64,000 nt of DNA from Candidatus Eisenbacteria bacterium RBG_16_71_46 (GCA_001780165.1 MFFQ01000066.1:39082-103081); one strand, 5' to 3'; shown: positions 14,545 to 61,920, counted from the first letter of the stretch. Notes: generated by a model not told the origin, from the letters alone. Translations and numbers: made by a program.

Positions 14545-14605
14545 AGTCCATGCGGGCGAGGGGGATAGACTGGGTCGAGGCGGATCGGCTGGGGGCCGAT
14601 CGTGC

Positions 14606-14620: not shown

Positions 14621-14676
14621 CCCCCGTGCGCGGACAGGGTTTTCAAGACGCCGTCCCCCGATGGAGGTCTCCTCGG

Positions 14677-15510: not shown

Positions 15511-15530
15511 GCTGGACGCGCTGGAGCGGC

Positions 15531-26041: not shown

Positions 26042-26212
26042 GGGAGCAAGCTGCGCTCGGCGGCGCGGCGCTCCCGGGCGCCACGTGAGGCGCGCCGGGC
26101 GACCGCACGCCGTCCCAAGGCGCCACCGGGCGGCCCTCAGGGGCGGTGCGAGCCGGGTCCGCGGCGCGATCGCCTTGACGTCCGCACGTAAACCTCGCTA
26201 CTGTGATTGGTC

Positions 26213-33846: not shown

Positions 33847-33948
33847 CGCCCGGGAAGGCGCATGGCTGATTCTCGCACGTGTTCCCGCGATCCACGCCGC
33901 TCCCCCCGAGCCGCCCGCCGATCGCATACCGCCGTCAGGAGGTGCCGC

Positions 33949-34485: not shown

Positions 34486-35971
34486 CGGGAAGGCGGCCGA
34501 ACAGGCCCAGGCGCAGGCCGGCGTCAAGACGCTCGAGCCCGGCGAGTTCGAATCCCTGCTCGGCAAGGAGTACAAGGCCGAGAAGACCAAGGAGGCCGTG
34601 CTCGACGGCGTCAAGACGCTGGCCGAGTGGGCGATGAAGTACAGCACGGTCATCTCGGACGACGCGATCAAGTCCATCGACGCCATCAAGGCCGAGATCG
34701 ACCGCCTGCTCACCGAGCAGGTGACCGTCATCCTCCACCAAGCCGAATTCCAGAAGCTCGAGGGGGCGTGGCGGGGCCTCTATCATCTGGTCAGCAACAC
34801 CGAAACCGACGAGATGCTCAAGATCCGGGTCTTCAACGTCTCGAAGAAGGACCTGCACAAGACCCTCGCGAAGTTCAAGGGCACGAACTGGGACCAGAGC
34901 CCGATCTTCAAGCAGATCTATGAAGACGGCTACGGCGTGCTGGGCGGCGAGCCCTTTGGCTGCCTGGTCGGTGACTTCCACTTCGACCACGGCCCGCAGG
35001 ACGTCGAGCTGCTGGGCGAGATGGCCAAGGTCGCGGCCGCATCGCACGCGCCGTTCATCACCGGCGCGGCTCCCGGCCTGATGGGCTTCGAGTCGTGGCA
35101 GGAGCTGAGCAATCCGCGCGACCTCGCCAAGATCCAGAGCACTCCCGAGTATGCCGCGTGGCGCTCGCTGCGCGACTCGGAAGACTCGCGCTACATCGGG
35201 CTCGCGATGCCGCGCTTCCTCGCCCGGCTCCCCTACGGGGCCAAGACCAGCCCGGTCGAGGAGTTCGATTTCGAGGAAGACACCGAGGGCGCCAAGCACG
35301 ACAACTACACGTGGGCGAATTCGGCCTACGCGATGGCCGTCAACATCAACAAGTCGTTCAAGGAGTTCGGCTGGTGCTCGCGGATTCGCGGCGTCGAATC
35401 GGGCGGAACGGTGGAGGGCCTGCCGGTCCACACCTTCCCCAGCGACGACGGCGGCGTGGACATGAAGTGCCCGACCGAGATCGCGATCACCGACCGCCGC
35501 AGCAAGGAGCTGGACGACCTCGGCATGATGCCGCTGACCCATCGCAAGGGCCAGGACGTCGCGACGTTCGTCGCGGCGCAGTCGCTCCAGAAGCCCGCCG
35601 AGTACGCGGACGCGGATGCGGCCGCGAACGCACGGCTGGCGGCCCGGCTGCCGTACCTGTTCGCGACCTGCCGGTTCGCGCACTATCTCAAGTGCATCGT
35701 CCGCGACAAGATCGGGTCCTTCAAGGAACGCGCGGACATGGAAACCTGGCTCAACAACTGGATCGTGCAATACGTGCTGGCGAATCCCTCGGTGGCCACC
35801 GAAGCGGAGAAGGCGAGAAAGCCCCTCGCCGGCGCGGAGGTCCAGGTCAAGGAAATCGAGGGGAACCCCGGCTACTACAGTTCGACGTTCTTCCTGAGGC
35901 CCCACTATCAGCTCGAGGGTCTCACCGTCTCGCTGCGCCTGGTTTCGCGGCTGCCGTCGGCCAAGAAGTAG
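34478..35971 (+). CDS. tssC: T6SS contractile sheath large subunit TssC (VipB).
   Basis: Highly conserved TssC blocks throughout (AMPRFLARLPYG, YTWANSAYAMAVNINKSF, LFATCRFAHYLK). Overlaps the tssB stop by 8 nt. Confidence 0.95.
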   Translation: MADGKAAEQAQAQAGVKTLEPGEFESLLGKEYKAEKTKEAVLDGVKTLAEWAMKYSTVISDDAIKSIDAIKAEIDRLLTEQVTVILHQAEFQKLEGAWRGLYHLVSNTETDEMLKIRVFNVSKKDLHKTLAKFKGTNWDQSPIFKQIYEDGYGVLGGEPFGCLVGDFHFDHGPQDVELLGEMAKVAAASHAPFITGAAPGLMGFESWQELSNPRDLAKIQSTPEYAAWRSLRDSEDSRYIGLAMPRFLARLPYGAKTSPVEEFDFEEDTEGAKHDNYTWANSAYAMAVNINKSFKEFGWCSRIRGVESGGTVEGLPVHTFPSDDGGVDMKCPTEIAITDRRSKELDDLGMMPLTHRKGQDVATFVAAQSLQKPAEYADADAAANARLAARLPYLFATCRFAHYLKCIVRDKIGSFKERADMETWLNNWIVQYVLANPSVATEAEKARKPLAGAEVQVKEIEGNPGYYSSTFFLRPHYQLEGLTVSLRLVSRLPSAKK

Positions 35972-46649: not shown

Positions 46650-48152
46650 TCAACTCCAGGGACCGGCCAGCGCGGCGGCGGGATCGGCGAGCGACTGGAA
46701 CCGGACCAGGCGCACCGCATTGCGATCGGGAAAGCTCATGAAGGGCATGATGCCTCGCCCCAGGATCGCCTCCAGCGCCCGCTCGGTGAGCACGACCTCG
46801 GCGCACGGCTGGAGCCGCGACTCCCCGTCGAGACGGTAGGTATGGGCCGGGAGGCTCCCGAGCTCGAGATGGTCGCCGGGGTCCATCGACCAACCGCTCT
46901 CCAGAAAGGAGTTCGCCAGCAGCGTCGCGCACGCGAAGGCGGGATTGCCCCACAGGTAAGCCTCGTGGTCGCGTTCCGGCGGCAGCTCCTCGAATGCGAA
47001 CCGCTCGGTGGCGTCGGTGCGTGGGCCGTAGGGCAGGCGCGAGAGCACGCGCGGCATCGCGAGGCCGATCCAGCGTGCCCATGCGCTGCTCCGCAGCGCC
47101 GCCCAGCGCTCCTCTTCCCCCGCCTCGAACGGGCGCCACGCCCGCGGATCCGGTGCCGCGGCCAGCGAGCCGCATCCGAGGATCGCCGGCGTCGCTGCGG
47201 CCAGGAACGGTCCTCCCGCGCGGGAGGCGATCGCCCCCAACGCACCGAGCAGTACCACGTCCTCGGGGTTACTCCCGAACGCGTAGCCGCCGACGATCAC
47301 CGACCAGGGACCGGCTCCGGGAGTGCCGGCGCCGCGCTCGACCAGTTGCCGGTAGGTGGCACTCCGCTCGAGTTCTCCGCCCGACGCGACCAGGTCCGCG
47401 GCCAGCTCCTGCCGCGTGACGTCGAGGAGCGAGACCTGGATCTCCTCACCGATCTCGATCTGCGAGAGCAGGCCCTCGATCGAGCGCCACGTGGATTCGA
47501 GCGCCTGGAAGGCGGGATGATGCAGCAGGGCGCGCGTCTGCCGGCTGATCGTGCGATCGACCGACGCGATCCACTCCGCCTGGCGCGGATCCGCCTGCGG
47601 CACGACGTCGGCGGCGATCATCCCCTTCACCATGCGCCGCACGTCCTCGCGCAGCCGGCCCTCGACGCGGACGCCCCCGAGGTCGCGGGGAGCGCTGCCG
47701 AGCAGACGGCCGATGGTCTCCGCGTCCTCCTCCGCCACGATGGTCGCGCGCGGCGTCGCGGCCTCCGCGCCGCCCAATTCCGCCGCGGTGGTCTCGAACG
47801 TGGCGGGATCCTGGAGCCGGCGCCGGGTCTCGCGCAGCGCCTCGAACAGACCGAGGCGCTGGAATAGCTCGTCGGGATGGAATTCGCCGATGCCGCCGAA
47901 TTCGATCGCCAGCTCGGGCCCCGAGGGGTCGAGCCGCAGCCGGAGCCCGGGTGCGAGGCGCGCGAAGGTCGTTTCGAGGGTCTCGTGGCTCAGGGCCATC
48001 TGCGGCCGCTCGGCCAACGGCTGTGCCGCGTCGGGCTGCCGCTGGCCGCGGCCACCGAGGTCCGCGAGGACGAGGACGCGCATCGGAGCCCCCGCGCGGG
48101 GCGCGGGGCGCGGGCTCCGATCGTCTCCGCCGAAACGGAATTCGAATCGCAT
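46650..48152 (-). CDS. Fused TssB-TssC-like contractile-sheath paralog (single ~500-aa polypeptide).
   Basis: N-terminal ~120 aa align to TssB: MRFEFRF / RVQIEYDV; VLVLADLGG / VMGVLADLSG; IEFGGIGEFHPDELFQRLGL / ITFESMDDFSPAAVARKVGA. The rest aligns to TssC: LLHHPAFQALESTWRSIEGLL / ILHQAEFQKLEGAWRGLYHLV; GLAMPRVLSRLPYGPRTDATERFAFEE / GLAMPRFLARLPYGAKTSPVEEFDFEE; YLWGNPAFACATLLANSFLESGW / YTWANSAYAMAVNINKSFKEFGW; LPAHTY / LPVHTF. Start chosen at the TssB-homologous Met (48152). Confidence 0.7.
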   Translation of the reverse strand: MRFEFRFGGDDRSPRPAPRAGAPMRVLVLADLGGRGQRQPDAAQPLAERPQMALSHETLETTFARLAPGLRLRLDPSGPELAIEFGGIGEFHPDELFQRLGLFEALRETRRRLQDPATFETTAAELGGAEAATPRATIVAEEDAETIGRLLGSAPRDLGGVRVEGRLREDVRRMVKGMIAADVVPQADPRQAEWIASVDRTISRQTRALLHHPAFQALESTWRSIEGLLSQIEIGEEIQVSLLDVTRQELAADLVASGGELERSATYRQLVERGAGTPGAGPWSVIVGGYAFGSNPEDVVLLGALGAIASRAGGPFLAAATPAILGCGSLAAAPDPRAWRPFEAGEEERWAALRSSAWARWIGLAMPRVLSRLPYGPRTDATERFAFEELPPERDHEAYLWGNPAFACATLLANSFLESGWSMDPGDHLELGSLPAHTYRLDGESRLQPCAEVVLTERALEAILGRGIMPFMSFPDRNAVRLVRFQSLADPAAALAGPWS

Positions 48153-48244
48153 CGGACCTGTCACCGACCGCCTCCCATGGTGTAATCTTCCCCGCGCACA
48201 CGATATCGTGGACCCCACCATGCCTCGAGCGCAAGGGGAGGGTG

Positions 48245-50410
48245 ATGATGAGCACCAGGCCGATCGCGGTGAAGAGCCCACTGGGTAAGGATGTCCTGCT
48301 GCTCCTCCACTTGAAGGCCAGCGAGGAGCTGGGACGCCTTTCGCTGTTCGAGCTGGAGCTCCTCAGCGAGAATCACGAGGTCAAGCTCGAGGACCTGCTC
48401 GGAAAGAGCGTGACGCTCGAGCTCGAGCGTCCCGCCGGCAAGCCGCGCTACTTCAACGGCCTGGTGACGCGCTTCTCGCAATCCGGACGGATCGGGCGCT
48501 ACTCGCGCTACCACGCCACCCTGCGCCCCTGGCTGTGGCTCCTCACTCGCACCGCCGACTGCCGCATCTTTCCCGATCCGAAGGAAGCCGAGTCGAAGAC
48601 CATTCCCGAGATCCTGAAGGACGTGTTCCGCAAGAACGGCTTCTCGGACTTCAAGGAACGGCTCCACGGGACCTACAAGCCGCGCGAGTACTGCGTCCAG
48701 TATCGGGAGACCGATTTCAACTTCGTGAGCCGGCTGATGGAGGAGGAGGGAATCTATTACTACCTCGAGCACGAGGACGGAAAGCACTTCGTCGTGCTGG
48801 CCGACTCGAGCACGTCGCACGATCCGATCCCGGGCTGCGAGAAGGTCCCCTTCATGGCGGCGACGGTCGAGAGCGCGGCGCGGGTCGATCACATCTCGGA
48901 CTGGCAGCTCGTCCACGAGCTACAGAGCGGCTCGGCCGTGCTCGACGACTACGATTTCGAGGTGTCGCGCGCGGACCTCAGCGTCCGGGCGTCGGTGCCG
49001 CGCGGCCACGCCCACGCCAAGCTGGAGATCTACGATTACCCGGGCTTCTACGTCGGCGCCTACAGCGCGCGCGGCGAGGGGACCCAGGGAGACAAGGACG
49101 CTCTCGATCGTGGCCAGCACTTCGCGCGCACGCGGATCGAGGAGGCCCAGACCGACTACGAGCAGATCCACGGCGGCGGCAACGTGCGCGGACTGGCGGT
49201 GGGAGGTGTGTTCAAGCTCACGGATTTCCATCGTGAGGATCAGAACCGCGACCACCTCGTGGTCGCGAGCGAGCTCGAGGTCCAGGTCGGCGGTTACGAG
49301 GGCTTCGACGCGGGCTCGAAAGAGACGCTCTACCGCTGCCGGTTCAGCGCCGTCCCGAGCAAGGTGCCGTTTCGGACGCGACGCATCACGCCCAAGCCGA
49401 GCATTCCCGGGCCGCAGACCGGGACCGTCGTCGGCAAGTCCGGCGAGGAGATCTGGACCGACGTGCACGGGCGGGTGAAGGTCCAGTTTCACTGGGACCG
49501 CAAGGGCGGCCACGACGAGAGCAGCTCGTGCTGGGTGAGGGTGGCGCACCCGTGGGCCGGCAAGAGCTGGGGCATCGTGCACATTCCGCGCATCGGCCAC
49601 GAGGTGGTGGTCGAATTCCTCGAGGGCGACCCCGACCGGCCGATCATCACCGGCAGCGTCTACAACGGGCAGAACAAGCCTCCCTACAAGCTGCCCGACC
49701 ACCAGACGCAGAGCGGGATCAAGTCCCGCAGCACCAAGGAAGGCGGCCCCGACAACTTCAACGAGATCCGCTTCGAGGACAAGAAGGGCGAGGAGCAGCT
49801 CTTCATCCACGCCGAGAAGAACCAGGACATCGAGGTCGAGAACGACGAGACCCACTCGGTGGGCCACGACCGCACCAAGACCATCGACCACGACGAGACG
49901 ACCCACGTCAAGAACAACCGCACCGAGACCGTGGACAAGGAGGAGAGCATCACGATCGGCGGGAGTCGGACGGAGAACGTCGCGAAGGACGAGACGATTG
50001 CTATCGGCGCGAACCGGACCGAGACCGTGGCCAAGGACGAATCGATCACGATCAGCGGTGGCCGGAAGGAGTCGGTGAGTAAGGACGAGAGCATTGCCAT
50101 CGGTGGCGGTCGTACCGAAACCGTGGCCAAGGACGAATCGATCACGATTTCCGGCAATCGCGAACTGATGGTGGCGAAGGACGAGGGTGTTTCGATCGGC
50201 GAGAAGTACAGCCAGAGCGTTGGCAAGGATGCCACGATCGATGTCGGCAAGAAGCTGACGATCCAGGCCGGAGATGAGATCACCCTGAAGACCGGATCGG
50301 CGAGCATCACGCTCAAGAAGAGTGGCGATGTCGTGATTTCCGGCGGCAAGGTAAGCGTCAAGGCGTCGGGAGACCTGACCCTCAAGGGATCGAAGATCGC
50401 GCAGAACTGA
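48245..50410 (+). CDS. vgrG: T6SS spike protein VgrG (TssI), with no C-terminal effector extension.
   Basis: gp27-like N-terminus (GLVTRFSQSGRIGRYSRYHATLRPWLWLL). gp5 OB-fold region. C-terminal beta-helix repeats. RBS AAGGGGAGG. Confidence 0.9.
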   Translation: MMSTRPIAVKSPLGKDVLLLLHLKASEELGRLSLFELELLSENHEVKLEDLLGKSVTLELERPAGKPRYFNGLVTRFSQSGRIGRYSRYHATLRPWLWLLTRTADCRIFPDPKEAESKTIPEILKDVFRKNGFSDFKERLHGTYKPREYCVQYRETDFNFVSRLMEEEGIYYYLEHEDGKHFVVLADSSTSHDPIPGCEKVPFMAATVESAARVDHISDWQLVHELQSGSAVLDDYDFEVSRADLSVRASVPRGHAHAKLEIYDYPGFYVGAYSARGEGTQGDKDALDRGQHFARTRIEEAQTDYEQIHGGGNVRGLAVGGVFKLTDFHREDQNRDHLVVASELEVQVGGYEGFDAGSKETLYRCRFSAVPSKVPFRTRRITPKPSIPGPQTGTVVGKSGEEIWTDVHGRVKVQFHWDRKGGHDESSSCWVRVAHPWAGKSWGIVHIPRIGHEVVVEFLEGDPDRPIITGSVYNGQNKPPYKLPDHQTQSGIKSRSTKEGGPDNFNEIRFEDKKGEEQLFIHAEKNQDIEVENDETHSVGHDRTKTIDHDETTHVKNNRTETVDKEESITIGGSRTENVAKDETIAIGANRTETVAKDESITISGGRKESVSKDESIAIGGGRTETVAKDESITISGNRELMVAKDEGVSIGEKYSQSVGKDATIDVGKKLTIQAGDEITLKTGSASITLKKSGDVVISGGKVSVKASGDLTLKGSKIAQN
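49921..50220 (+). repeat. Tandem ~57-nt coding repeats (19-aa units, xITIGGxRTExVAKDES) forming the VgrG C-terminal beta-helix.
   Basis: Visible DNA-level tandem repetition (GACGAATCGATCACGAT.. / ACCGTGGCCAAGGACGA.. recur). Confidence 0.5.
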
Positions 50411-50417
50411 GGCGGAC

Positions 50418-51608
50418 GTGCTTCTCGACATCCTCGAAGAACACCTGGAAGAAACCGAGATCCTGTGGTCGAGCCGACGGATCACCATGCGCTCTCCGAA
50501 CCTCGACCTGCGCGGGCTGGCAGCTCTCGAGGCGCGCCTGAGCGCGCATCTCGAGGGTCTGGCGCTGGGCGCGCGGGAATCGCGCGAGTCGCTCGAGGCC
50601 GCGCTCACGGGCTGCGATACGGATCGAGCCTTCGCAGCGGCCGCGGCCCTGCTCACGACCCGCGATCCAGGGGCGAGGCAGGGCGTCCGACAGGCGCTCG
50701 CCGTGTCGTTGCCGCCGGCGCGCCGCGGGATCACGGAAGCGCTCTGCCACATGCCCCTCAAGGACGACACACGCGCGGCGCTGGAGATCCAGCTCGAGCG
50801 GAGCGCGGGGCTCGATCCCGCCGCGATCGAGGTTCTGAGCTTCCACCGATGCCTTCCTGACGGGAATCTCGCGCTAGCCGTGCCTGGCGGGGATCGCGAA
50901 ACGCGGCGAGCCGCGGCGCGCGCGATCGGCCGCATGGGGGGCAGGGCCGACTGGGCGCAATGGCTCGTCGGGGACGACGACCAGGCGGTGAGGGACTTGG
51001 CGCTTCAGGCCGCGGCGCGATGCGGGCTGCCGTGGGCGCACCGGAAACTCCGCCTGGTCTGTGGGGATGGCGAGCGGGTCTCTCCCGAATCACTCCGACT
51101 GCTCGCGTGCCTCGGCGATCGCTCAGACATCGAGCTTCTCAGGACCTGCGCTCACCGACACGAACTTGGCGACGCGGCCGTTGCCGGTCTCGGGACGCTT
51201 GGTTACACCGGATGCGTCGACGCGCTGATGGAGGTCGTGGGAGACGCGCGTCTGGCCCGTGCCGCGGGACGGGCGTTCAAGAGGATTACCGGATTGGAGC
51301 CGCCGGTGATCGCGGAACAATCGAGCGGGCTCGAGATCGAGGACGCCACCTTCGAGGATCTGCGCCCGATTCCAGATGCCGGAGCCACGCGGGCGCTATG
51401 GCGCGAGCGGCGAGCGGGCTTCGACGCGCACATTCGCTGGCGCGACGGCGAGCCGCTCGAGACCGGGCGCTGGAAGCAGGCGCCCTATCTCGGCGATCTC
51501 TTGACGAGGCGCGAGGAGCTCACCCGTCTCTGGATGCAGGAGCCGGCCCTCTTCCCGAAACTCGAATTGGATGCACCCGTGGCCCGTCAGCGCGCGGTCA
51601 CCGCATAG
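50418..51608 (+). CDS. HEAT/ARM-like repeat protein of unknown function, immediately downstream of vgrG.
   Basis: PBS-lyase-type HEAT repeat signatures (AVRDLALQAAARCG, DRSDIELLRTCAHRHELGDAAVAGLGTLG, ARLARAAGRAFKRITG). GTG start 8 nt after the vgrG stop. Confidence 0.45.
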   Translation: MLLDILEEHLEETEILWSSRRITMRSPNLDLRGLAALEARLSAHLEGLALGARESRESLEAALTGCDTDRAFAAAAALLTTRDPGARQGVRQALAVSLPPARRGITEALCHMPLKDDTRAALEIQLERSAGLDPAAIEVLSFHRCLPDGNLALAVPGGDRETRRAAARAIGRMGGRADWAQWLVGDDDQAVRDLALQAAARCGLPWAHRKLRLVCGDGERVSPESLRLLACLGDRSDIELLRTCAHRHELGDAAVAGLGTLGYTGCVDALMEVVGDARLARAAGRAFKRITGLEPPVIAEQSSGLEIEDATFEDLRPIPDAGATRALWRERRAGFDAHIRWRDGEPLETGRWKQAPYLGDLLTRREELTRLWMQEPALFPKLELDAPVARQRAVTA

Positions 51609-51619
51609 GAGGAGCGATC

Positions 51620-52102
51620 ATGGCGATCACCGATGTGTTCAAGCGCGCCCTGGCGGGGGAACTGGGGCTTTCACGGGGGCGCGTTGTCGCGATCGAGTCC
51701 GACGGCAGGGTGCGGGTCCGCATCGGTGCCGGACGCGGACCGGATGTTCCCTGCGAGGTGCTGCAAACGGGCACGACGGCTGCGGCGCGGCTGACCGTCG
51801 GCAGCGATGTGTTGGTCGCATGCCCGGAGGAGCCGGGAAGACCGGGCGTGATCCTGGGCACCGTGGGGTCGGCGGAGGCGGTCGCGGACGCTCCAGGCGC
51901 TGCCGCCGCTCCCGCCAGCGAGCCCATGCGCCTCGTCCATCGCGACATCGTGATCGAAGCCGGTGAGGAGTTGACGCTCCGGTGTGGCGAGGCCTCGATC
52001 AAGATCCGCCGCGACGGCAAGATCGTGATCCGCGGCGAGCACATCCTGAGCCGCGCGAAGGGCACGCAGCGAATCAAGGGAGGGAGCGTGGCGATCAATT
52101 AG
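51620..52102 (+). CDS. Small gpV/gp5-OB-fold-like protein (phage baseplate assembly protein V-like).
   Basis: GRVVAIESDGRVRVRIGAGRGPDVPCEVLQ...VGSDVLVACPEEPGRPGVILGTV resembles the Phage_base_V OB-fold pattern. RBS GGAGG. Confidence 0.4.
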   Translation: MAITDVFKRALAGELGLSRGRVVAIESDGRVRVRIGAGRGPDVPCEVLQTGTTAAARLTVGSDVLVACPEEPGRPGVILGTVGSAEAVADAPGAAAAPASEPMRLVHRDIVIEAGEELTLRCGEASIKIRRDGKIVIRGEHILSRAKGTQRIKGGSVAIN

Positions 52103-52152
52103 CTGGGAGTTCGCCGCGGAAGCGCCGCCGCCGTCATACAAGCGAGGGGATC

Positions 52153-52641
52153 ATGCCAGCAACGCTGAACGTGAATTTTCTGACCGTCGTGCATGCCGGA
52201 AGCTCCGGAATGGTGGTGGGCTTCCCGGATGTGTGCCTGACGCCGTCCCCCGCGGGGCCAATCCCCATTCCGTACCCCAACATTGCCCAATCAGCCGATA
52301 CCTCGCAGGGCAGTCAGACTGTGACCGTCGACGGCAATCCCATCATGCTGAAGGACTCGGTATTCGCGACCAGTTCGGGGGACGAAGCCGGCTCGGCCGG
52401 GGGGGGCGTGGTTTCGGCCACCACCAAGGGGAAGGCTGAATTCGCGCTGTACTCGTTCGATGTCAAATTCGATGGCAAGAACGTCTGTCGCCTCAGCGAC
52501 ATCATGCTGCTGAACAAGCTATCAACCCCGAACACACCGCCATTCCCCGAGATTCAGCCGCCACTCGTCGTGCTGCCGAGCATCATGAGTGAGGATCCTG
52601 AAAAGAAGCCCGATGTCGGCATGTTCGACCGCAAACAGTAA
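52153..52641 (+). CDS. PAAR-like protein, DUF4150 family (T6SS spike-tip cap), with a short Pro-rich C-terminal extension.
   Basis: GFPDVCLTPSPAGPIPIPYPNIAQSAD...TVDGNPIMLKDSVFATSSGDEAGSAGGGVVS matches DUF4150 PAAR-like consensus blocks. Confidence 0.7.
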   Translation: MPATLNVNFLTVVHAGSSGMVVGFPDVCLTPSPAGPIPIPYPNIAQSADTSQGSQTVTVDGNPIMLKDSVFATSSGDEAGSAGGGVVSATTKGKAEFALYSFDVKFDGKNVCRLSDIMLLNKLSTPNTPPFPEIQPPLVVLPSIMSEDPEKKPDVGMFDRKQ

Positions 52642-52790
52642 CGTGCCCCGGCCGCTGTGGCACCCGGGCGATGCGCGTCCCGCGGATCGATCTGGCATGG
52701 GCCTCTCCGGTCCTCGTATGCGCGACGAGTGCCCGGAACTCCAGCCCAACCGGGCGTTGGACCGCCCTGCGGAGCTGCTCGAGGTGACGA

Positions 52791-53804
52791 GTGCTTGAGT
52801 TGCAGAACCAGACGCCCTTTGCCGCGATTCTGCTGCCGACCCTCGAACCGGATGGCAGCGATGCTTTGCTGACGATCGTCAAGGCGACCTATGAGATCCG
52901 GAGCGGCGGACCGCTCGAACTGGCGCCCCAGCAGCGGGCATTCGTCATGGCGGACGAGTTCTGGGGGGAGCCCGCGATGTCGAGCTTGCGCTATGCGAGC
53001 GATCTCGTGCCCGAGAAGCGTGGCACGGACGTCGTGCTGGTCGGCACCGCGCATGCCCCTCGAGGCCGAGCCACGCAGGTCGACGTCACCCTGGAAGTGG
53101 GCCCTCTACGCAAGACCGTTCGGGTCATCGGCGATCGTCGTTGGCGGAGATTCCTCTTCTTTTCATTCCCTTCCAGGCCGGAACCCTTCGCCACGATGCC
53201 GTTGGTCTATGAACGCGCCTTTGGCGGCGAGGACAAGAGTCGGAAGAAGCCCGGCAAGTGGGCGCACGAAGCGCGTAATCCGGTGGGTCGAGGCCTGGTC
53301 TCGAATCCCAGGCGGAAGGACCTTCGCCAGGTGTTGCTCCCCAATCTGGAGGATCCGCTGCATCGTCTGACGAAGCACTCCTCCCGCCCCCCACCGGCGT
53401 GCTTCGGATTCGTCGCGCCGAGCTGGGAGCCGAGGAGACGGTATGCCGGGACCTACGACGACGGCTGGAAGACCGGCCGTTGTCCGTTACTGCCGGCGGA
53501 CTTTGACCCGCGTTTCTACAATGCCGCTGCGCCGGATCTCGTGAGCGACGGGTTTCTTCAAGGTGGTGAGCTCGTGCGCCTGACGAACGCGTCCAAGGAC
53601 GGAACGCTGACCTTGCGGCTGCCCATCGTCAAGGTCGCCACCGAGTTCTTCATCGACGGGGCGGTGGTTTCGCAGAGGTGCGACCTCGACACGGTGCTCC
53701 TGGAGCCCGACGAAGGACAGGTCGTGTTGACGTGGCGTACGAAAGTCCGGTGTCATCGCAAGATCAAGCTCGTCGCCGGGGCCCGGACGAGGACCGTCTC
53801 CTGA
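52791..53804 (+). CDS. DUF2169 domain protein (T6SS effector-loading / adaptor-associated family).
   Basis: N-terminus LELQNQTPFAAILLPTLEPDGSDALLTIVKATYEI is the characteristic DUF2169 start. GTG start. Confidence 0.7.
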   Translation: MLELQNQTPFAAILLPTLEPDGSDALLTIVKATYEIRSGGPLELAPQQRAFVMADEFWGEPAMSSLRYASDLVPEKRGTDVVLVGTAHAPRGRATQVDVTLEVGPLRKTVRVIGDRRWRRFLFFSFPSRPEPFATMPLVYERAFGGEDKSRKKPGKWAHEARNPVGRGLVSNPRRKDLRQVLLPNLEDPLHRLTKHSSRPPPACFGFVAPSWEPRRRYAGTYDDGWKTGRCPLLPADFDPRFYNAAAPDLVSDGFLQGGELVRLTNASKDGTLTLRLPIVKVATEFFIDGAVVSQRCDLDTVLLEPDEGQVVLTWRTKVRCHRKIKLVAGARTRTVS

Positions 53805-54922
53805 GCCCGATCACTGCGAGCCAACAGCCCCTCGATCGGATCGTCATCACGGGAATCGGCCTGGTGACGTCGGTGGGGCACCGCGCCGAGGAAGCGTTCA
53901 CGTCGCTGCGCGCCGGGATCGTGCGCTTGCAGGAGTACCCGGCTTACGAGCCCCTGGTCCGCGATCCCGCCCTCTTCTTTCCGGAGAGCGTCGTGGCATC
54001 GCCGGTGACCGAACTCACGGATGGGCTCGAAGGCGTCGAGCGACTGCTCGCGCTGGCCACCCCCGCGCTGAAGGAGGCGATCTTCGATGCAAAGCTGTCC
54101 GAGACGGACATCGGCTCCACGAGTCTTCTCGTAGCGGGAAGCCAGATGCCTTCTCGCATCCCGGGCACGAGGATCGCCACGGTCCTGGTTCCCCGGCTGG
54201 CCCAGAGGGTGGCGAGGATTCCGTTTGCAGGGAAGCAGTACTACTGCGTCGGCTCGGCCGGCTGCTTCGAGGCGTTGCATCGCGCCCGGCGGTTGTTGAA
54301 CGCTGGGACCTGCAGGTACTGCATCGTGGGTGGCGTCGACTCGTGGCTCGACCCGGAGACGCTGGCCTGGCTGGACGAGGCGAGGCGCTTGAAGAGCGAC
54401 AGCACGATCGATGGATTCATTCCAGGAGAAGCGGCCGCGTTCGTCGTCGTGGAGCGCGAGGAGCAGTGCCGGGCGAGGAAGAAACTGCCATACGCGGTCT
54501 GCGGTGGCGTGGCGCTCGACGAAGAGAAGAACACGATCTGGACCGACCAGCCCTGCACCGGCGAAGGCTTGGCGCGTTGCTTGAAGACGGTGCTGGCCGA
54601 TCCGATCGGGCGGAGCCGGGGCCCAGACGTCGTCGTCTGCGATCTGAACGGCGAGAGCTATCGAGCGAGCGAGTGGGCCTACGCCGTTCCGAAGGCGTTT
54701 CAGGAGGTCAAAGTGCCCCCCTTGGTGCACCCTGCGGACTGCATCGGTGACGTCGGGGCGGCCAGCGGCGGCGTACTGCTGGGCCTGGCGGCCTGGTCGT
54801 CGAAGAAGGACCCGGCCGAATGGAGGACCGCCCTCGCATGGTGTTCATCCGACGACGGCCTGCGGGGAGCCTGCGTCATCGAGGCGTTGGGGACGAGCCA
54901 CGCGGATCCACATGGCCGTTGA
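53750..54922 (+). CDS. Beta-ketoacyl synthase-like (thiolase-fold condensing-enzyme) protein, possibly non-canonical or inactive.
   Basis: RIVITGIGLVTSVGH N-terminus. Cys-region CVGSAGCFEALHRA. GFIPGEAAAFVVVERE. C-terminal GDVGAASGG block. Start codon uncertain (GTG 53750 or 53732). Confidence 0.6.
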   Translation: MSSQDQARRRGPDEDRLLSPITASQQPLDRIVITGIGLVTSVGHRAEEAFTSLRAGIVRLQEYPAYEPLVRDPALFFPESVVASPVTELTDGLEGVERLLALATPALKEAIFDAKLSETDIGSTSLLVAGSQMPSRIPGTRIATVLVPRLAQRVARIPFAGKQYYCVGSAGCFEALHRARRLLNAGTCRYCIVGGVDSWLDPETLAWLDEARRLKSDSTIDGFIPGEAAAFVVVEREEQCRARKKLPYAVCGGVALDEEKNTIWTDQPCTGEGLARCLKTVLADPIGRSRGPDVVVCDLNGESYRASEWAYAVPKAFQEVKVPPLVHPADCIGDVGAASGGVLLGLAAWSSKKDPAEWRTALAWCSSDDGLRGACVIEALGTSHADPHGR

Positions 54923-55244
54923 GATCACCGCCAATCAAGCGACCGTGACGGTGGGCGAGGGGATCGACCTTGGCGTCAAGTTCACCCAGGAGTGCGGAAC
55001 CCCGAAGCCCGGCGCTGGCGCCGCGGGAGTGAGTGGAAACGGAGCCGGAGGAGGGCGCAGACCGGGCTCGAGTCACCGACGATTCAGGGCGGAGCGCGAG
55101 AACCCGCGCAGCCGGCCCTGCGCGGACTCCTCGGGGAGGGCTGCCGATTCTCCGTGGGCTCTCGGGAGCCCTGGGGTGCCGCGTTGCGCTTCGACTCGGT
55201 CGGGTCGGCCGAGCTTGCATGCGAATAGCGATGGACGGTCTTGA
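54912..55244 (+). pseudogene. N-terminal module-only paralog, or degenerate copy, of the 55830-56720 gene. The first ~28 aa are homologous; the remainder is low-complexity and Arg/Gly/Pro-rich.
   Basis: MAVEITANQATVTVGEGIDLGVKFTQECG vs MAVEITGATTQVSVGEKITLGVKFTKEWG, with DNA ~75% identical over ~90 nt. ATG overlaps the ketosynthase-like gene stop. Confidence 0.35.
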
Positions 55245-55792
55245 ACAGCGTGGTCTATTCTCGCCGAGTGCGCTCCTCGTTCATCAGTGCGTTGGTCGCC
55301 GTCTGCGTCGTCTGCGGCTGCACCCACCCAGTCGAAACGATCCAAGAGGAACCCAGGATGTCCGACCTAGAATGGGGCCCTGTCACGGAGTGGTGCCGCG
55401 TCTCCTTGTCAGCCGACCGCTCATCGTCCGTGGCGGGAGAGAAGATCACCGTAACGGTGGTACTCCGAAATGTTTCGGACAAGCCCGTCCAATACGAGCC
55501 TTATCCCTTCGCGCCCGGGATCGATTACAAGGTGTTCGCCGCAGAGGGCGAGTCGGCCGAGATGACGGCCTATGGCCGGCTACTTCGCGATTCTGCGGGA
55601 GTCTCCTCTTCGGCCGTCGAGACGCTGGCCCCCGGACAGGACGTCGTCTACGAGCTGCTGCTCAGCCGGGTCTACGACCTGACGGTCGCGAAGAGCTACC
55701 GGGCACAGGTCTCGCGCGTCATCGTCTCGCAAGGGCGTTCCGCGACTGCCAGCTCCAACGTGCTGAAGCTCGAGGTCTCGGAGCGCGAGTGA
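55241..55792 (+). CDS. Putative lipoprotein or secreted protein; candidate immunity protein.
   Basis: Signal/lipobox-like ISALVAVCVVCGCTHP. Lower GC. Start codon uncertain (TTG 55241, GTG 55250 or 55268). Confidence 0.45.
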   Translation: MNSVVYSRRVRSSFISALVAVCVVCGCTHPVETIQEEPRMSDLEWGPVTEWCRVSLSADRSSSVAGEKITVTVVLRNVSDKPVQYEPYPFAPGIDYKVFAAEGESAEMTAYGRLLRDSAGVSSSAVETLAPGQDVVYELLLSRVYDLTVAKSYRAQVSRVIVSQGRSATASSNVLKLEVSERE

Positions 55793-55829
55793 AGGAGGCC
55801 TCCGCTTTCGGTCTCTCCCAGAGGGTGTG

Positions 55830-56720
55830 ATGGCCGTCGAGATCACGGGCGCCACAACTCAGGTCAGCGTTGGCGAGAAGATCACGCTCGGGGTCAAGTT
55901 CACCAAGGAATGGGGCGTGCTCAAGAGCGTCGACTGGTCCATCCCCGGGAAGGTGATCAAGAATTACACGTGCAACTTCGCGCAGGGCAAGCTCGAGGTG
56001 TTTGCCCCCCCGGGCCCGGGCAAGTTCGCGGCCGAATTTCACTGGGTGGACGGGGCGGACGGCCGCGTGGTCGAGGCCAAGTGCGTGTTCACGGCCTCCG
56101 GGAAGGACGTGAACAAGACCGTTTCCGCGACTTTCGACGTCAAGCGCCCGAAGCTGGACTCGTATACGTCGGCGACCGGGAGTGTGAAGATCGACGGCGA
56201 CAAGATGGGCCTTCTCGGCCCCGGCATCACCTGGACCGCCAAGGTGTCGCCCAACGGGGCCCGCGCTGGGTTGATCGCATTCATTCAGCAAATCAAACCC
56301 CACCGGGTCTGGGTGCCGGGGAAGAAGTGGAGCTCGGGTGGCGTGTTCGTGCTCGACGGAGCCGCCGGTAAGTCGAAGATCTTCTACGCGCAACAGACCG
56401 AATCGCTGTCTGGTGGCACGGCAACGCTGACCTCCAACGACAGCCCATCGAATCCTCTGAGTGCCTTCCCGGCAGCGCTCACGAACACGGGGGAAGATGC
56501 ATTCAAGATCTTCGTGATGTACCAGTCGTCGGCCGCCGGCAGTCTCTGGGTTCCGCTGGGGGTGCTGGCGTGGAACTGGAAGGGTGAGGCGCGACGAGGG
56601 TCAACGGGTGATCCATGGGCGATGCACGGTACGCCTTCCTGGTCTGTAAACCCCTCCGGTGCAGACACACTGGATTTCCCTGAATGGAGCAAGTACTACC
56701 CGAACCTCGGCTACACGTAG
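55830..56720 (+). CDS. Novel 297-aa protein with no recognisable domain and no signal peptide; candidate T6SS cargo/effector.
   Basis: Clean ORF with RBS GAGGG. Shares its N-terminal 28-aa module with the fragment at 54912. Lower GC than the T6SS core. Confidence 0.5.
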   Translation: MAVEITGATTQVSVGEKITLGVKFTKEWGVLKSVDWSIPGKVIKNYTCNFAQGKLEVFAPPGPGKFAAEFHWVDGADGRVVEAKCVFTASGKDVNKTVSATFDVKRPKLDSYTSATGSVKIDGDKMGLLGPGITWTAKVSPNGARAGLIAFIQQIKPHRVWVPGKKWSSGGVFVLDGAAGKSKIFYAQQTESLSGGTATLTSNDSPSNPLSAFPAALTNTGEDAFKIFVMYQSSAAGSLWVPLGVLAWNWKGEARRGSTGDPWAMHGTPSWSVNPSGADTLDFPEWSKYYPNLGYT

Positions 56721-57147: not shown

Positions 57148-58848
57148 ATGGAATCCCAACAGGTCTCGCACTACCAGCTCGGGCGGATGCTCGGGCGCGG
57201 TGGGATGGGCGAGGTCTACGAGGCGGTGGACCTCAACCTCGATCGCCGCGTCGCCCTCAAGTTCATCGCCCCCGAGCTCGCGGCCGATCCCGAGAGCCTG
57301 CGCCGCTTCGAGCGCGAAGCGCGCTCGGCGGCCGCGCTCACGCATCCGCACATCGCGACGCTCTACGAGTTCGTGCGCGACGGCCCGCGCCCCTTCATCG
57401 CCATGGAGCTCATCACCGGGGCGAGCCTGCGCGCCAAGATCGGCGCCGGGCCACTCCCGATCGCCGAGGCGCTGGGGATCGCGCGCGACGTGGCCTCGGC
57501 GCTGGCCGCCGCCCACCGGCGCGGCATCGTGCACCGGGACATCAAGCCCGAGAACCTGATGCTCGACGAGCACGGCGCGATCAAGGTCATGGATTTCGGT
57601 CTCGCGCGCGCGACGCAGGCCTCGCGTTTGACCATGACCGGCACCACCCTCGGCACCGCCGGCTACATGGCGCCCGAGGCGATCCGCGGCGAGCCGGGGA
57701 TGCCGGCCGACGTCTTCGCGCTCGGCGCGGTGCTGCACGAGATGCTCGCCGGCGAGCTGCCGTTCAAGGGGGATAACCCGCTGGCGCTGATGTACTCGAT
57801 CTCGAACATGCCGGCCCGGCCGCTGCGCGAGGTGCGCCCCGAGACTCCCGAGGCGGTCGAGGCGCTGGTGCTGCGCGTCCTCGAGAAGGACCCGGAGCAG
57901 CGCCCCGACGCCGCGACCCTGGCGCACGAGCTGGGGGTGCTCACCGGGGTGCGCGCGGCCGGGCTCGAGGCCACGACGCTCGAGCTCGAAATCGAGCGGG
58001 TCCCGCCGTCGGTTCCGGCGAAGGTCGAAGGCGTGTTCCCCGCGCGCCGCCGGTCATGGCGCGCGCGCGCCCTGGTCGCCGCCGTCCTGGTCGTGGTGGC
58101 GGTGCTGGCCGGCTTCGGGTGGCGCGAGCGCGACCGGAGGAACGCCGTGGCGGCGCTGGACCTTCAGACCCGCGGCAAGACGGCGCACCAGGAGGGCCGC
58201 ATCGATGAGGCGCAGTCGCTCTACCAGCAGGCGCTGCGGAGAAACCCGAAGAACGCCGGAGCGCTGGGCAATCTGGCGCTGATCTACATGGACCGGGGAC
58301 GGCTCACGACCGCCGACTCGCTGCTGCGGGCGATGCTCCGCCACACGCCGCGCGACCCGGTGCTGCAGGCCGCCGCCCACGCCAGCCTGGCGGAGATCCG
58401 CATGCGCGAGCTCGCGTGGTCCGCGGCGGTCCAGGATCTCGAGCGGGCCTTCGCGCTGGATTCCTCGTCGGCGAACGCCTACAACAACCTGGGCTACGCG
58501 CTGATCCGGAACCAGCAGCTCGCCGCCGCGGTCGCGGTCCTGCGCCGGGGAGTGAAGCGCTTTCCGGGCGAGGCCTTTCTGTTCAAGAACGTCGCCGACG
58601 CGGAGCTGCAGATGGGAGAGGCGAAGGGCGCGCTCCCCGACCTCGATCGGGCGCTGGCGCTCGCCCCCGATCTCGCCTCGGCGCGCGGTCTGCGCGCCGA
58701 GGCCCGCGCGCAGGCCGGGGACCTGGCGGGTGCCAGGGCCGACTGGAGGATCTACGCCGCGGCGCGGACCGACTCGGCGGAGCGGGCGAGGATCGCCCGC
58801 GTCCTGGCCGAGCGGGGGGTCCCGCTCGAGCCCACGGAGGCGCCGTAG
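57148..58848 (+). CDS. Hanks-type Ser/Thr protein kinase with a TM segment and C-terminal TPR repeats.
   Basis: GRGGMGEVY, ALK, HRDIKPENLML, DFGLAR and APE motifs. TM segment ALVAAVLVVVAVLAGFGW. TPR-like repeats follow. Confidence 0.85.
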   Translation: MESQQVSHYQLGRMLGRGGMGEVYEAVDLNLDRRVALKFIAPELAADPESLRRFEREARSAAALTHPHIATLYEFVRDGPRPFIAMELITGASLRAKIGAGPLPIAEALGIARDVASALAAAHRRGIVHRDIKPENLMLDEHGAIKVMDFGLARATQASRLTMTGTTLGTAGYMAPEAIRGEPGMPADVFALGAVLHEMLAGELPFKGDNPLALMYSISNMPARPLREVRPETPEAVEALVLRVLEKDPEQRPDAATLAHELGVLTGVRAAGLEATTLELEIERVPPSVPAKVEGVFPARRRSWRARALVAAVLVVVAVLAGFGWRERDRRNAVAALDLQTRGKTAHQEGRIDEAQSLYQQALRRNPKNAGALGNLALIYMDRGRLTTADSLLRAMLRHTPRDPVLQAAAHASLAEIRMRELAWSAAVQDLERAFALDSSSANAYNNLGYALIRNQQLAAAVAVLRRGVKRFPGEAFLFKNVADAELQMGEAKGALPDLDRALALAPDLASARGLRAEARAQAGDLAGARADWRIYAAARTDSAERARIARVLAERGVPLEPTEAP

Positions 58849-59143: not shown

Positions 59144-60631
59144 ATGACCCGCGTAACACGCGAATTCACCCGCCCGCGCAACTACTACTTGGCCGCCGCC
59201 GCCCTGATCCTGATCGGACTGTTGATCGGCCTGGGTCTGAGCGCCGGGTTCGACCTTCAGCGCGTCTCGACGGCGGCCCGAAACGGCCTCCAACTGTCGA
59301 CCAACCCCGCGGACCTGCCCGAGAGCCCGTTCGTCTCGGTGGTCGAGCGGGCGCTGCCCGCCGTGGTCTTCGTCGACGTCAAGAAGAAGGTCGCCGCCGC
59401 CGACGGCGACGATCCGCATTCCGATCTCTTCCGCCGCTTCTTCGGCGACAACCCGCAGCGTCGGATGGTGCGGCCCACCTCGGGGTCGGGCTTCATCATC
59501 GATCCGTCGGGCTACATCCTGACCAACAACCACGTGGTTTCGAATGCCGATGACATCAATGTCACGCTCAACGACGGCCGCAGCTTCAAGGCCACGGTGA
59601 TCGGCACCGATCCGGAGACCGACGTTGCGGTCATCAAGATCGAGGGCCGTAACCTGCCGGTGATCCCGCTGGGTGATTCGGACAAGCTGCGCGTGGGTGA
59701 CTACGCCATCGCGATCGGCAATCCGCTGGGCGAGCTCAAGGGCTCGGTGACCATGGGCATCATCAGCGCCCAGGGACGCTCCAACCTGAACATCTGGGGA
59801 GGGACCCCCGGGTTCCAGGACTTCATCCAGACCGACGCGTCGATCAACTTCGGCAACTCGGGCGGCCCGCTCTGCAACATCCGGGGCGAGGCGATCGGTA
59901 TCAACACCGCGATCAACCCCGGCGGGCAGGGCATCGGCTTCGCCATTCCCATCAACCTCGCCGGTCACGTGGCCGAGCAACTCGTGGCGACCGGCACCGT
60001 GAAGCGCGCCATGCTCGGGGTCTACCTCGCTCCGCTGACGCCCGAGCTGGCCGAGGGCTTCGGCATCGCCGCGACGCAGGAAGGCGTCCTGATCCAGAGC
60101 GTGAATCCCGGCTCGGCCGCTGAGAAGGCCGGCATCAAGCGCAACGACGTCATCGTCGAATTCGACGGGGTTCCGGTGGGCGATCTGCAGAAGTTCCGCC
60201 TCAAGGTGGCCGATACCCCGGTGGGCAAGCGCGTCCCGCTGGCCGTGCTTCGCGAGGGCAAGCGCGTCACCCTGAACGTCACTCTGGCCGAGCGCAGCAC
60301 CGAGGCGTTGGCCCAGGCGCGGCCCCAACCCCAGCCGACCGAGAGGCCGACGCTGGCCGGGCTGCAGGTCCGGGATCTCACCGGCAGCGAGAAGTCCGAG
60401 CTGTCGGTCAAGACCGGGGTGGTGATCACCGACGTCGAGGACGGCAGCGCCGCGAATGACGCCGGACTGCGGGCGGGCGACGTGATCGAGGAGGTCGGCG
60501 GCAAATCCGTGGCGAGCGTCGGCGACTTCACCAAGCTGGTGCGCGACGCCAGGACCCGCGGCAACTTCGCGGTCCTGCTGCGCAACCGGAACGGAGACGT
60601 GGCATTCGTTCCCCTGCGCGTCCGCGAGTAG
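59144..60631 (+). CDS. degP: Periplasmic serine endoprotease DegP/HtrA (trypsin-like domain plus two PDZ domains).
   Basis: GSGFIIDPSGYILTNNHVV (His), DVAVIKI (Asp) and GNSGGPL (Ser). Two PDZ segments. Confidence 0.9.
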   Translation: MTRVTREFTRPRNYYLAAAALILIGLLIGLGLSAGFDLQRVSTAARNGLQLSTNPADLPESPFVSVVERALPAVVFVDVKKKVAAADGDDPHSDLFRRFFGDNPQRRMVRPTSGSGFIIDPSGYILTNNHVVSNADDINVTLNDGRSFKATVIGTDPETDVAVIKIEGRNLPVIPLGDSDKLRVGDYAIAIGNPLGELKGSVTMGIISAQGRSNLNIWGGTPGFQDFIQTDASINFGNSGGPLCNIRGEAIGINTAINPGGQGIGFAIPINLAGHVAEQLVATGTVKRAMLGVYLAPLTPELAEGFGIAATQEGVLIQSVNPGSAAEKAGIKRNDVIVEFDGVPVGDLQKFRLKVADTPVGKRVPLAVLREGKRVTLNVTLAERSTEALAQARPQPQPTERPTLAGLQVRDLTGSEKSELSVKTGVVITDVEDGSAANDAGLRAGDVIEEVGGKSVASVGDFTKLVRDARTRGNFAVLLRNRNGDVAFVPLRVRE

Positions 60632-60702: not shown

Positions 60703-61920
60703 ATGATGAACACGGCTCTTCTTCCGCGCCGGGCTGCGACGCTGGCCACGGCGTTGCTGGTCCTGGTCGCCGTCTCAGGCGTGGCCGCGGCCGATACGGT
60801 CACGCTCACCGCGATGCGATCGTGGTCGGCTCCCGCGAACACCCGCGTGGTCCTCGACTTCACCGCTCCGGTGAACCCGGTCACCCCGGACTCGGGCGTC
60901 ACCCGCCAGCTCGTCCTCAGCATCCCCGGTGAAACGGTGGTGCGGGCCGCGGGGGTCCCCGCGGTGATGGCCGTGGGCGACAGCGTCGTCGATTCGGTGG
61001 TGGTCACCCGCGTCGACGGCGGTGCCCGGTTCCAGCTCTTCCTCGCCGACTCGATCTCCTTCCGCGTGTTCCGGCTCATGGCCGAGGACGACAAGCCGTT
61101 CCGACTCGTGATCGATGTCGCGCGCCCGGGCGCCGAGGCGGCCGAGGACCAGCGCCTCGAGGGCATCGCCGCCGTCAAGCGCCGGGAGCGAATGCGGATC
61201 GTGGTCGTCGATCCCGGCCATGGCGGCGAGGACAGCGGCGCGCGCGGGCCGGGCGGAGTGCTCGAGAAGAACGTGACCCTCGCCGTCGGCCGGATGCTGG
61301 TGGACGAGCTGAACGGTATTCCCGGCGTGAAGGCGGTGCTCACCCGCGACCGCGACTACTTCATCCCACTCCGCGACCGCTATCGGCTCGCCGAGAAGAT
61401 GCGCGCCGACGTGTTCATCAGCATCCACGCCAATTCGTCTCGCCGGCGGGGGTCGGGCAGCGGCAGCGAGGTCTACTTCCTGTCCCTGCGCGGGGCCAGC
61501 GACCAGGCCGACGCCGATCTCGCCGACCTCGAAAACGCGGCCGACCTGGTGGGCGGCGTCCCGGCCCAGTCCGAGGACGATCTGGTGAGCATCCTCTACG
61601 ACGTCAAGCGCAGCTCCGCACTGAAGCAGAGCGAGCTGCTGGCGGAATCCCTGCTCGATCAGGTGGCGAGGGACCGCCGCCTCGAATCGCGCGGGGTCAA
61701 GCAGGCCGGCTTCGTGGTGCTGAAGTCGGTCGAGTTCCCGTCGGTGCTGGTGGAGCTGGCCTTCATCAACAACCCGGTGGAGGCGCGCCTGCTCCGTAGC
61801 CCGGCGTTCCAGCGCCAGATGAGCGGGCAGCTCGCGACCGGGGTGAAGTACTACTTCCAGCGGGCCGGGATCGGTCTGCTCGATGGCGGCGGCCGCACCG
61901 GGCAGGCCCTCGGCCGCTGA
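60703..61920 (+). CDS. amiC: N-acetylmuramoyl-L-alanine amidase (Amidase_3, AmiC-like) with an N-terminal AMIN domain.
   Basis: VVVDPGHGGEDSGA, DVFISIHAN and FVVLKSVEFPSVLVELAFINN are Amidase_3 signatures. Signal peptide. Confidence 0.85.
   Translation: MMNTALLPRRAATLATALLVLVAVSGVAAADTVTLTAMRSWSAPANTRVVLDFTAPVNPVTPDSGVTRQLVLSIPGETVVRAAGVPAVMAVGDSVVDSVVVTRVDGGARFQLFLADSISFRVFRLMAEDDKPFRLVIDVARPGAEAAEDQRLEGIAAVKRRERMRIVVVDPGHGGEDSGARGPGGVLEKNVTLAVGRMLVDELNGIPGVKAVLTRDRDYFIPLRDRYRLAEKMRADVFISIHANSSRRRGSGSGSEVYFLSLRGASDQADADLADLENAADLVGGVPAQSEDDLVSILYDVKRSSALKQSELLAESLLDQVARDRRLESRGVKQAGFVVLKSVEFPSVLVELAFINNPVEARLLRSPAFQRQMSGQLATGVKYYFQRAGIGLLDGGGRTGQALGR

Follow-up and report, generated by a model that had tools for sequence, protein, structure and literature searches.

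A probable remnant of a second gene copy beside a candidate cargo and lipoprotein pair in a type VI secretion module of Candidatus Eisenbacteria

Among the accessory systems described for type VI secretion systems (T6SS), the closest to the locus discussed here is the Class II Tvp system, exemplified by the Pseudomonas aeruginosa gene set VgrG1b-PA0096-PA0097-PA0098-Tse7, which also provides the definition of TvpD as a PRK06147-type protein (Monlezun, Earl & Coulthurst, EMBO J 2026, PMC13373197). Proteins of the PRK06147 type had earlier been proposed to be adaptors, and some are fused to TIGR02270 (PMC7714669). Our locus lies on a stretch of 64,000 nucleotides from Candidatus Eisenbacteria bacterium RBG_16_71_46 (GCA_001780165.1 MFFQ01000066.1:39082-103081), the whole of which we call the window. 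It contains a complete T6SS cluster (TssJ, K, L, M, A, B, C, Hcp, TagJ-like, TssE, F and ClpV), and the core is followed by genes for VgrG, a TIGR02270 HEAT protein, a DUF6484-like protein, a DUF4150 protein, a DUF2169 protein and a PRK06147-like protein, then by a gene fragment, a lipoprotein gene and an intact gene whose product we call F297. The T6SS link of the locus, claimed in an annotation made from the bare sequence (the original prediction), is thus confirmed, with VgrG, the DUF4150 PAAR-like protein and DUF2169 all inside that cluster. Here we propose that the fragment is probably the scar of a second F297 gene, and we consider what F297 and the lipoprotein might do.

Judged from sequence, the gene set matches a Class II Tvp-type module: as in that system, a VgrG, a putative small VgrG mimic of the DUF6484 type, a DUF2169 adaptor, a PRK06147/ketoacyl-synthase-like protein and a DUF4150 tip are encoded together. 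There are three differences. The PAAR-like protein of the window has 163 residues and no fused toxin, whereas the PAAR of Tse7 comes with one; modules of the window type always add a TIGR02270 HEAT protein, F297 and a lipoprotein; and their gene order is shuffled between lineages. The toxin of Tse7 is reportedly a nuclease.

The fragment occupies the start of an open reading frame (ORF) of 110 codons at 54912..55244 on the plus strand. This ORF begins with MAVEITANQATVTVGEGIDLGVKFTQECG, which is homologous to MAVEITGATTQVSVGEKITLGVKFTKEWG, the start of the intact gene at 55830..56720 (plus strand), just as the original prediction had held. Identity amounts to 19/29 over the first 29 residues (19/30 over 30). 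A tblastn search of the full 296-residue protein against the window recovers the fragment at E 2.6e-6, the next best match having E 0.13, and a hidden Markov model (HMM) of the F297 family scores E 1.9e-8 at 54912-55001, which it aligns to profile positions 1-30. At the DNA level, the similarity is lower than the 75% over some 90 nucleotides originally estimated: it is 68% ungapped over 87 nucleotides and 59/90 over the first 90, and reaches 77% only in a 47-nucleotide core (54951-54997 versus 55869-55915). Homology of the two copies begins at the ATG, upstream of which the sequences are unalignable, and stops at about codon 30. Up to there, GC content by codon position is of the coding type (0.62/0.41/0.83). 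We therefore take 54912..55001 for the vestige of a second F297 gene copy, a diverged one of which codons 1-30, at the 5' end, are left. Its ATG sits 11 nucleotides inside the end of the PRK06147-like gene (stop 54920-54922), within a C-terminal extension of about ten residues that is evident from an alignment with four orthologues.

Could the second copy be intact and merely broken by a sequencing or assembly frameshift, as the original prediction had allowed for 54912-55244? The window does come from a metagenome-assembled genome. However, no frame past codon 30 or so matches the F297 family, and the roughly 240 nucleotides before the lipoprotein gene fall far short of the missing 265 codons. 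Moreover, fragment and downstream tail are base-for-base the same in two other assemblies, L018 (GCA_001777975.1) and L019 (ERZ4902948); because three assemblies are identical there, the repeat is no sequencing or assembly artefact. Together with an all-frame tblastn of the full protein, which finds nothing past codon 32 or so, this agreement rules out a frameshifted second copy, to which we attach next to no probability.

The remainder of the ORF (55002..55240, plus strand; its mechanical end is at 55244) is rich in Arg, Gly and Pro if translated, as originally described, and is most likely non-coding, to judge from its base composition and its lack of homology. In the frame of the fragment, GC content by codon position is 0.66/0.80/0.68. 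The comparison with the F297 family in all frames yields no match in this tail; tblastx against six related loci (L001-L006) gives weak scattered matches, the best being E 4e-4 to L004, and blastn against the window gives short, low-score matches only. The tail has no Rfam match, its predicted RNA fold is not unusual (z = -0.37), and it contains no promoter-like sites; four terminator-like matches, all on the minus strand, fall outside it. From base composition, we estimate that an open frame of about 80 codons arises by chance about once in five times in DNA of 70% GC.

These properties bear on the idea that ORF 54912 is a functional short gene, which would hand ribosomes on from the PRK06147-like gene to that of the lipoprotein by translational coupling. 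Its ATG falls within the last codons of the gene upstream, its TGA shares nucleotides with the earliest candidate start of the lipoprotein (cTTGAa, 55241-55244), and its frame is intact and the same in three assemblies. But an open frame of this length is expected by chance at the frequency just given, and the GC phasing of the tail is non-coding. The start of the lipoprotein is itself uncertain: besides TTG 55241, it may be GTG 55250 or GTG 55268, either of which suits the signal peptide equally well. There is no such ORF at the other loci, and no gene caller predicts it: the callers of the three assemblies call no gene at the ORF or its tail. We consider a coupling gene improbable.

The fragment has diverged from its neighbour to the same degree as from orthologues of other phyla, and thus appears to be the remnant of a distinct, diverged copy rather than of a fresh duplicate. 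It shares 66/90 nucleotides with the orthologue in L004 and 64/90 with that in L007, and up to 20/30 residues with orthologues in other lineages. A 40-residue query from its start retrieves no protein sharing three 5-mers in a set of 5.8 billion sequences, so that the parent allele was not found, and a search for other 5' fragments of F297 in 17 fetched loci found none. With good but not complete confidence, we regard ORF 54912 as a pseudogene scar, a remnant of about 30 codons of a second, diverged F297 copy, and not as a working gene. Several observations caution against this interpretation. The mismatches between the two copies are distributed 7/7/14 over the three codon positions, a pattern that, as far as sequence goes, does not discriminate neutral decay from selection. 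The fragment retains an intact ATG and family-consensus residues, and its ORF bridges the stop of the PRK06147-like gene and the first possible start of the lipoprotein gene through the TTGA overlap; a residual function, such as translational coupling, is nevertheless unlikely. Finally, the fragment is seen in only 1/13 distinct loci, and since this is so, the path of rearrangement cannot be reconstructed from the sequences available.

How might such a scar have arisen? Gene order provides a hint. In subfamily 1 of the family the lipoprotein gene precedes F297, whereas in subfamily 2 and the distant loci F297 precedes the lipoprotein gene. The order in the window (fragment, lipoprotein, F297) resembles an intermediate between these orders, as duplication and subsequent loss would produce. 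We envision a starting locus of the type PRK06147-like, F297, lipoprotein, an arrangement seen in L011 and L013, in which part of the gene set would have been duplicated or rearranged, giving a second F297 copy upstream. This upstream copy would then have been largely deleted, leaving its start of about 30 codons and hence the order now seen; the exact path is our inference. More broadly, a comparison of L001, L002, L004, L005, L008 and L011/L013 with 47951-56720 of the window finds the eight genes for VgrG, DUF6484, DUF2169, the PAAR-like protein, the lipoprotein, F297, the PRK06147-like protein and the HEAT protein reordered in almost every lineage. At L004, inverted halves of the gene set flank an IS1595 transposase.

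Orphan effector pieces left by cassette displacement are known from the T6SS auxiliary clusters of Vibrio cholerae and, as orphan toxin-immunity modules, from Rhs and contact-dependent inhibition (CDI) systems. Such orphans usually retain the 3' toxin-encoding end together with the immunity gene. The fragment resembles them in being a truncated, diverged piece of a putative cargo gene beside an intact pair, with extra immunity-like copies present at related loci. It differs in that the window keeps only about 30 codons of the 5' end and no matching partner gene: a single gene of the lipoprotein family is present in the window, and none is left for the fragment.

The intact F297 gene encodes 296 residues counted from ATG 55830, or 297 from GTG 55827, and the protein has no signal peptide. 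Consistent with its original description as novel, it has no sequence match in Pfam, NCBIfam or the Protein Data Bank (PDB), and family profiles find nothing significant among PDB sequences. An AlphaFold2 (AF2) model (pLDDT 87) is all-beta and consists of two domains: residues 1 to about 105 form a beta-sandwich resembling immunoglobulin (Ig) and PKD domains, and residues from about 106 to 296 form a second beta-sandwich. Structural matches in the PDB are restricted to generic Ig, PKD, C2 and ApaG folds. In the same model, the motif shared with the fragment maps to strands E3-6, E11-13 and E17-24 of the N-terminal Ig-like domain. The 29 shared residues are thus the first strands of that domain, and therefore not an independent module.

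This assignment bears directly on the proposal that the N-terminal 28 residues or so are a new T6SS cargo-recognition or adaptor-binding tag, with the fragment as an orphan of the tag. Conservation within the T6SS-linked subfamily is indeed highest at the extreme N-terminus (M1, I5 and G7 invariant, E4 and T6 nearly so), and the close T6SS-linked proteins, encoded within VgrG/DUF2169/DUF4150 gene sets, all begin exactly at the motif and are leaderless. In this they are like proteins bearing MIX, prePAAR, FIX or RIX markers, which also have a conserved stretch at the very N-terminus of T6SS-linked proteins without a Sec signal. These markers, however, head unrelated polymorphic toxins, whereas the F297 stretch is part of an Ig-like fold, belongs to a protein conserved over its full length and is internal in relatives outside the T6SS. 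A word-indexed search found 18 close relatives, all of full length (the closest, L007, is 73% identical and lies on a contig that ends short of the sequence upstream of its lipoprotein gene), and an exhaustive search with the profile yielded 3,818 cluster representatives (at 50% identity) with E <= 1e-3, among the best 150 of which almost all span profile positions from about 5 to 315; the one truncated case is the fragment. Neither the 18 close relatives nor these best 150 include a protein that joins the motif to an unrelated C-terminus. Distant members have the corresponding strand (..VEITD.., ..LEIVD..) at internal positions, up to more than 1000 residues from the N-terminus, and the tail following the motif in the fragment is not coding-like. 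A discrete delivery tag is thus very unlikely: what is shared is the whole unit of about 300 residues, of which the motif contributes the first strands.

In the wider family, the F297 unit begins anywhere from residue 20 or so to about residue 1140 of exported multidomain proteins (about 382 in L016 and 663 in L014). In relatives outside the T6SS, from Pyrinomonadaceae, Sedimentisphaerales and Brocadiia, it is the last domain, at the very C-terminus, of large proteins whose genes have the partner gene immediately downstream; several of these proteins have N-terminal leaders resembling signals or membrane anchors. By contrast, every distinct locus of the close leaderless subfamily that retains its neighbours (L001, L002, L004, L005, L007, L008, L009 and L011/L013) has genes of the T6SS set of VgrG, DUF6484, DUF2169, PRK06147-like, DUF4150 and TIGR02270 proteins in shuffled order; such modules occur in Eisenbacteria, Planctomycetota, Phycisphaerae and Brocadiia. 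The proposed clustering with DUF2169 and DUF4150 genes consequently holds for this subfamily and fails for the distant members L012 and L014-L017, which show no association with T6SS spike or adaptor genes.

The lipoprotein gene (55241..55792, plus strand) is assigned from its adjacency to F297, a family HMM and a lipobox. Its product carries a lipoprotein-type signal with FISALVAVCVVCG directly before the lipobox cysteine (..ALVAVCVVCGC..), and a hydrophobic leader with a cysteine can be read directly off the copies in the window, L001, L002, L005 and L015. That the intervening gene is a putative lipoprotein of low GC content is therefore correct in kind, the difference in GC being slight (0.61-0.63 versus 0.65-0.70). 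The protein has no Pfam or NCBIfam match. It is not TssJ, a candidate that we ruled out; TssJ (PF12790) is encoded at 26207-26728. According to the HMM, a gene of this family adjoins F297 in 13/13 distinct loci, including those outside the T6SS, which makes the lipoprotein a conserved F297 partner. It is 48-58% identical to the F297-adjacent gene in L001, L005 and L008 and about 30% identical to those in subfamily-2 loci. Across the subfamilies, identity of the F297 C-terminal domain drops from 64-77% to 25-40%, and the N-terminal domain keeps 52-67%. The lipoprotein diverges in step with the C-terminal domain of F297. Two diverged lipoprotein copies, 36-37% identical, accompany a single F297 gene in L011 (8439-8879 and 11100-11519), L013 (8365-8802 and 11103-11519) and L017 (1361-1894 and 2193-2690), an arrangement reminiscent of immunity arrays.

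What might F297 and the lipoprotein do? Export and lipidation of the partner, combined with the lack of a signal peptide in F297, mean that the two can meet only after delivery of F297 into a periplasm. This reasoning, the toxin-less PAAR, the co-divergence of the pair, the duplicated lipoproteins and the layout of a C-terminal domain plus downstream partner in relatives lead us to a model in which F297 is a cargo effector and the lipoprotein its candidate immunity protein. In this scenario, the leaderless 296-residue protein would be loaded as cargo on the VgrG/PAAR spike and would act in the periplasm or envelope of the target, and the lipoprotein would confer immunity. It is the best-supported model we can offer, and we give it close to an even chance; secretion, toxicity and immunity are all our reading of the comparisons above, and the co-divergence fits an effector-immunity pair without proving it. 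The shuffling of effector-immunity cassettes invoked by the original prediction accords with the co-diverging partner and its duplicated copies, and fails in its other element, variable C-termini on a conserved N-terminal module.

The layout of the large relatives recalls polymorphic toxins, in which a C-terminal toxin domain is said to be followed by a downstream immunity gene: the unit of about 300 residues is the last domain of large non-T6SS relatives, and a small exported partner is encoded just downstream. There are differences, too, in that F297 has no recognisable toxin fold or catalytic motif and the N-terminal parts are proteases and Ig repeats, with no classical trafficking domains. 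Such considerations weigh on the effector model. Neither F297 domain was found to have a toxin or enzyme fold or a catalytic motif, and just three polar residues, Q153, D176 and D204, are invariant throughout the wide family. In 63 large members, the F297 unit is accompanied by trypsin-like peptidase, PLD, beta-lactamase-like and VanY domains and Ig-type repeats, and in none by a PAAR, Rhs, VgrG or MIX domain, an absence that also speaks against a delivery tag. Given these fused domains, the F297 unit could serve in binding or anchoring instead of being a toxin.

With neither domain showing a toxin fold, the idea that the two proteins are non-toxic and serve in binding or anchoring is a serious rival. 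F297 and the lipoprotein might, for instance, be an accessory of this subtype of T6SS that is attached to the envelope, or else a docking module that exported enzymes have come to reuse. Such a role would suit the folds, which are generic beta-sandwiches of adhesion, carbohydrate-binding module (CBM) or C2 type, and the attachment of the unit to proteases, PLD, beta-lactamase-like and Ig-repeat proteins; the pair also shows the same strict conservation as the accessory genes do. Yet a T6SS-linked form without a signal peptide and an exported partner can come together only once the T6SS has delivered the former, which follows the logic of immunity; the duplicated, diverged lipoproteins resemble immunity arrays, and the cluster already has a TssJ. 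We hold this alternative to be possible, though on the doubtful side.

Returning to the effector model, a weaker form of the tag idea may be considered, in which the whole Ig-like N-terminal domain of about 105 residues docks onto PAAR, VgrG or Tvp proteins and the C-terminal sandwich is the diversifying toxic part that the lipoprotein matches. Conceivably, this would explain why the N-terminal domain stays well conserved across both T6SS-linked subfamilies while the C-terminal domain and, over the same comparison, the lipoprotein fall to the low values given above; a toxin-less PAAR-like protein would also lead one to expect a separate cargo. Against this stands that the N-terminal domain is conserved also in Sec-exported members outside the T6SS, so that its conservation need not reflect spike binding, and that a toxin fold is missing from both domains. 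Such docking is a tentative proposal, which we would not favour at present. Taking the effector model to its widest extent, one may speculate that the F297 unit and the lipoprotein represent a new, widespread toxin/immunity system acting on the envelope, with more than 3,800 clusters and two deployments, either as the C-terminal domain of Sec-exported carriers or, without a leader, as the cargo that Class II Tvp modules load on DUF4150 PAAR spikes lacking a toxin; the Ig-like domain would then be the spike-docking part and the fragment a trace of active cassette turnover. We would regard this larger picture as rather unlikely as a whole.

The remaining genes of the module are all on the plus strand. 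The module is headed by the VgrG spike protein (48239..50410; Pfam Phage_GPD E 2.6e-97, Gp5_trimer_C and Phage_base_V; 721 residues in L018). The C-terminal region of VgrG (49868-50251, plus strand) contains seven overlapping copies of a 96-nucleotide unit spaced by 48 nucleotides (16 codons), corresponding to a gp5_C-type beta-helix region as expected for VgrG. There follows a HEAT-repeat protein of the TIGR02270 family (50418..51608; TIGR02270 E 2.8e-40, below the cut-off, and Pfam HEAT_2), which is present in all long related loci. A putative DUF6484-like small VgrG mimic of the TvpC type (51620..52102) has no direct Pfam match and also cross-matches a profile of the VgrG C-terminus; it scores E 3.3e-62 with our own HMM, a partly circular value, as the HMM was built from the window copy together with the L001/L005 (PF20093) and L002 orthologues. 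The spike tip is a stand-alone DUF4150/Tox-PAAR-like protein of 163 residues (52150..52641; PF13665 E 7.4e-40 over residues 20-127) that has no toxin domain, its orthologues measuring 160-163 residues. The DUF2169 protein (52791..53804; PF09937 E 3e-98) represents the TvpA-type adaptor.

The PRK06147/ketoacyl-synthase-like protein (53822..54922; PRK06147 E 9.5e-65, Pfam ketoacyl-synt) corresponds to the TvpD-type PAAR chaperone. PRK06147 is its best NCBIfam match and covers 340/349 positions, with a score of 219 bits that is below the equivalog cut-off of 342. The protein and its orthologues (5/5) carry G-S/T-A-G (VGSAGCFEAL in the window), at what we take to be the position of the active-site cysteine of ketoacyl synthases. 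This suggests a putatively non-catalytic thiolase fold, which would fit a chaperone role.

Base composition sets the region from VgrG to F297 (47951-56720) apart: its GC content is 0.60-0.70 and its GC content at third codon positions (GC3) 0.76-0.86, compared with a GC3 of 0.84-0.96 in the T6SS core and flanks and a GC content of up to 0.77 in the window. The module may thus have been acquired separately from the core cluster. Divergently oriented beside VgrG, a single ORF of 543 residues (46650-48281, minus strand) joins VipA-like and VipB-like (TssB/TssC sheath) regions; separate, normal tssB and tssC genes are present at 33862-35971. A fused VipA/VipB paralogue also lies beside the Tvp-type module in two unrelated loci, L002 (19740-20951, minus strand) and L005 (6462-8009, minus strand). 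Within the T6SS cluster, the gene directly after ClpV encodes a Lipase_3 (class 3 lipase) protein (43861-45114, plus strand), which may be a separate effector of the lipase type. Ser/Thr protein kinases flank the T6SS region at 23501-26041 and 57148-58848 (both plus strand), one with PEGA and the other with TPR repeats, and may provide PpkA-type regulation; at L001, too, a Pkinase+PEGA gene (14438-15637) comes after the module. Downstream of the kinase, a DegP/HtrA-type protease (Trypsin_2 and two PDZ domains; 59144-60631, plus strand) and an Amidase_3 protein (N-acetylmuramoyl-L-alanine amidase; 60703-61920, plus strand) are probably housekeeping envelope proteins.

The duplication that drew attention to this locus is real and has an ordinary explanation, and the claim of a new secretion tag is not upheld. 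A corollary of our analysis is that F297 and the lipoprotein are the likely candidates for the missing cargo/immunity pair of Class II Tvp modules with a toxin-less PAAR tip. The family of the candidate cargo is a large one without counterparts in Pfam, NCBIfam or the PDB, and its use extends beyond the T6SS. If the two proteins are indeed toxin and immunity protein, they would add a class of non-enzymatic-looking beta-sandwich effectors and would allow the loading of separate cargo onto Tvp-assisted spikes to be examined on a concrete example.

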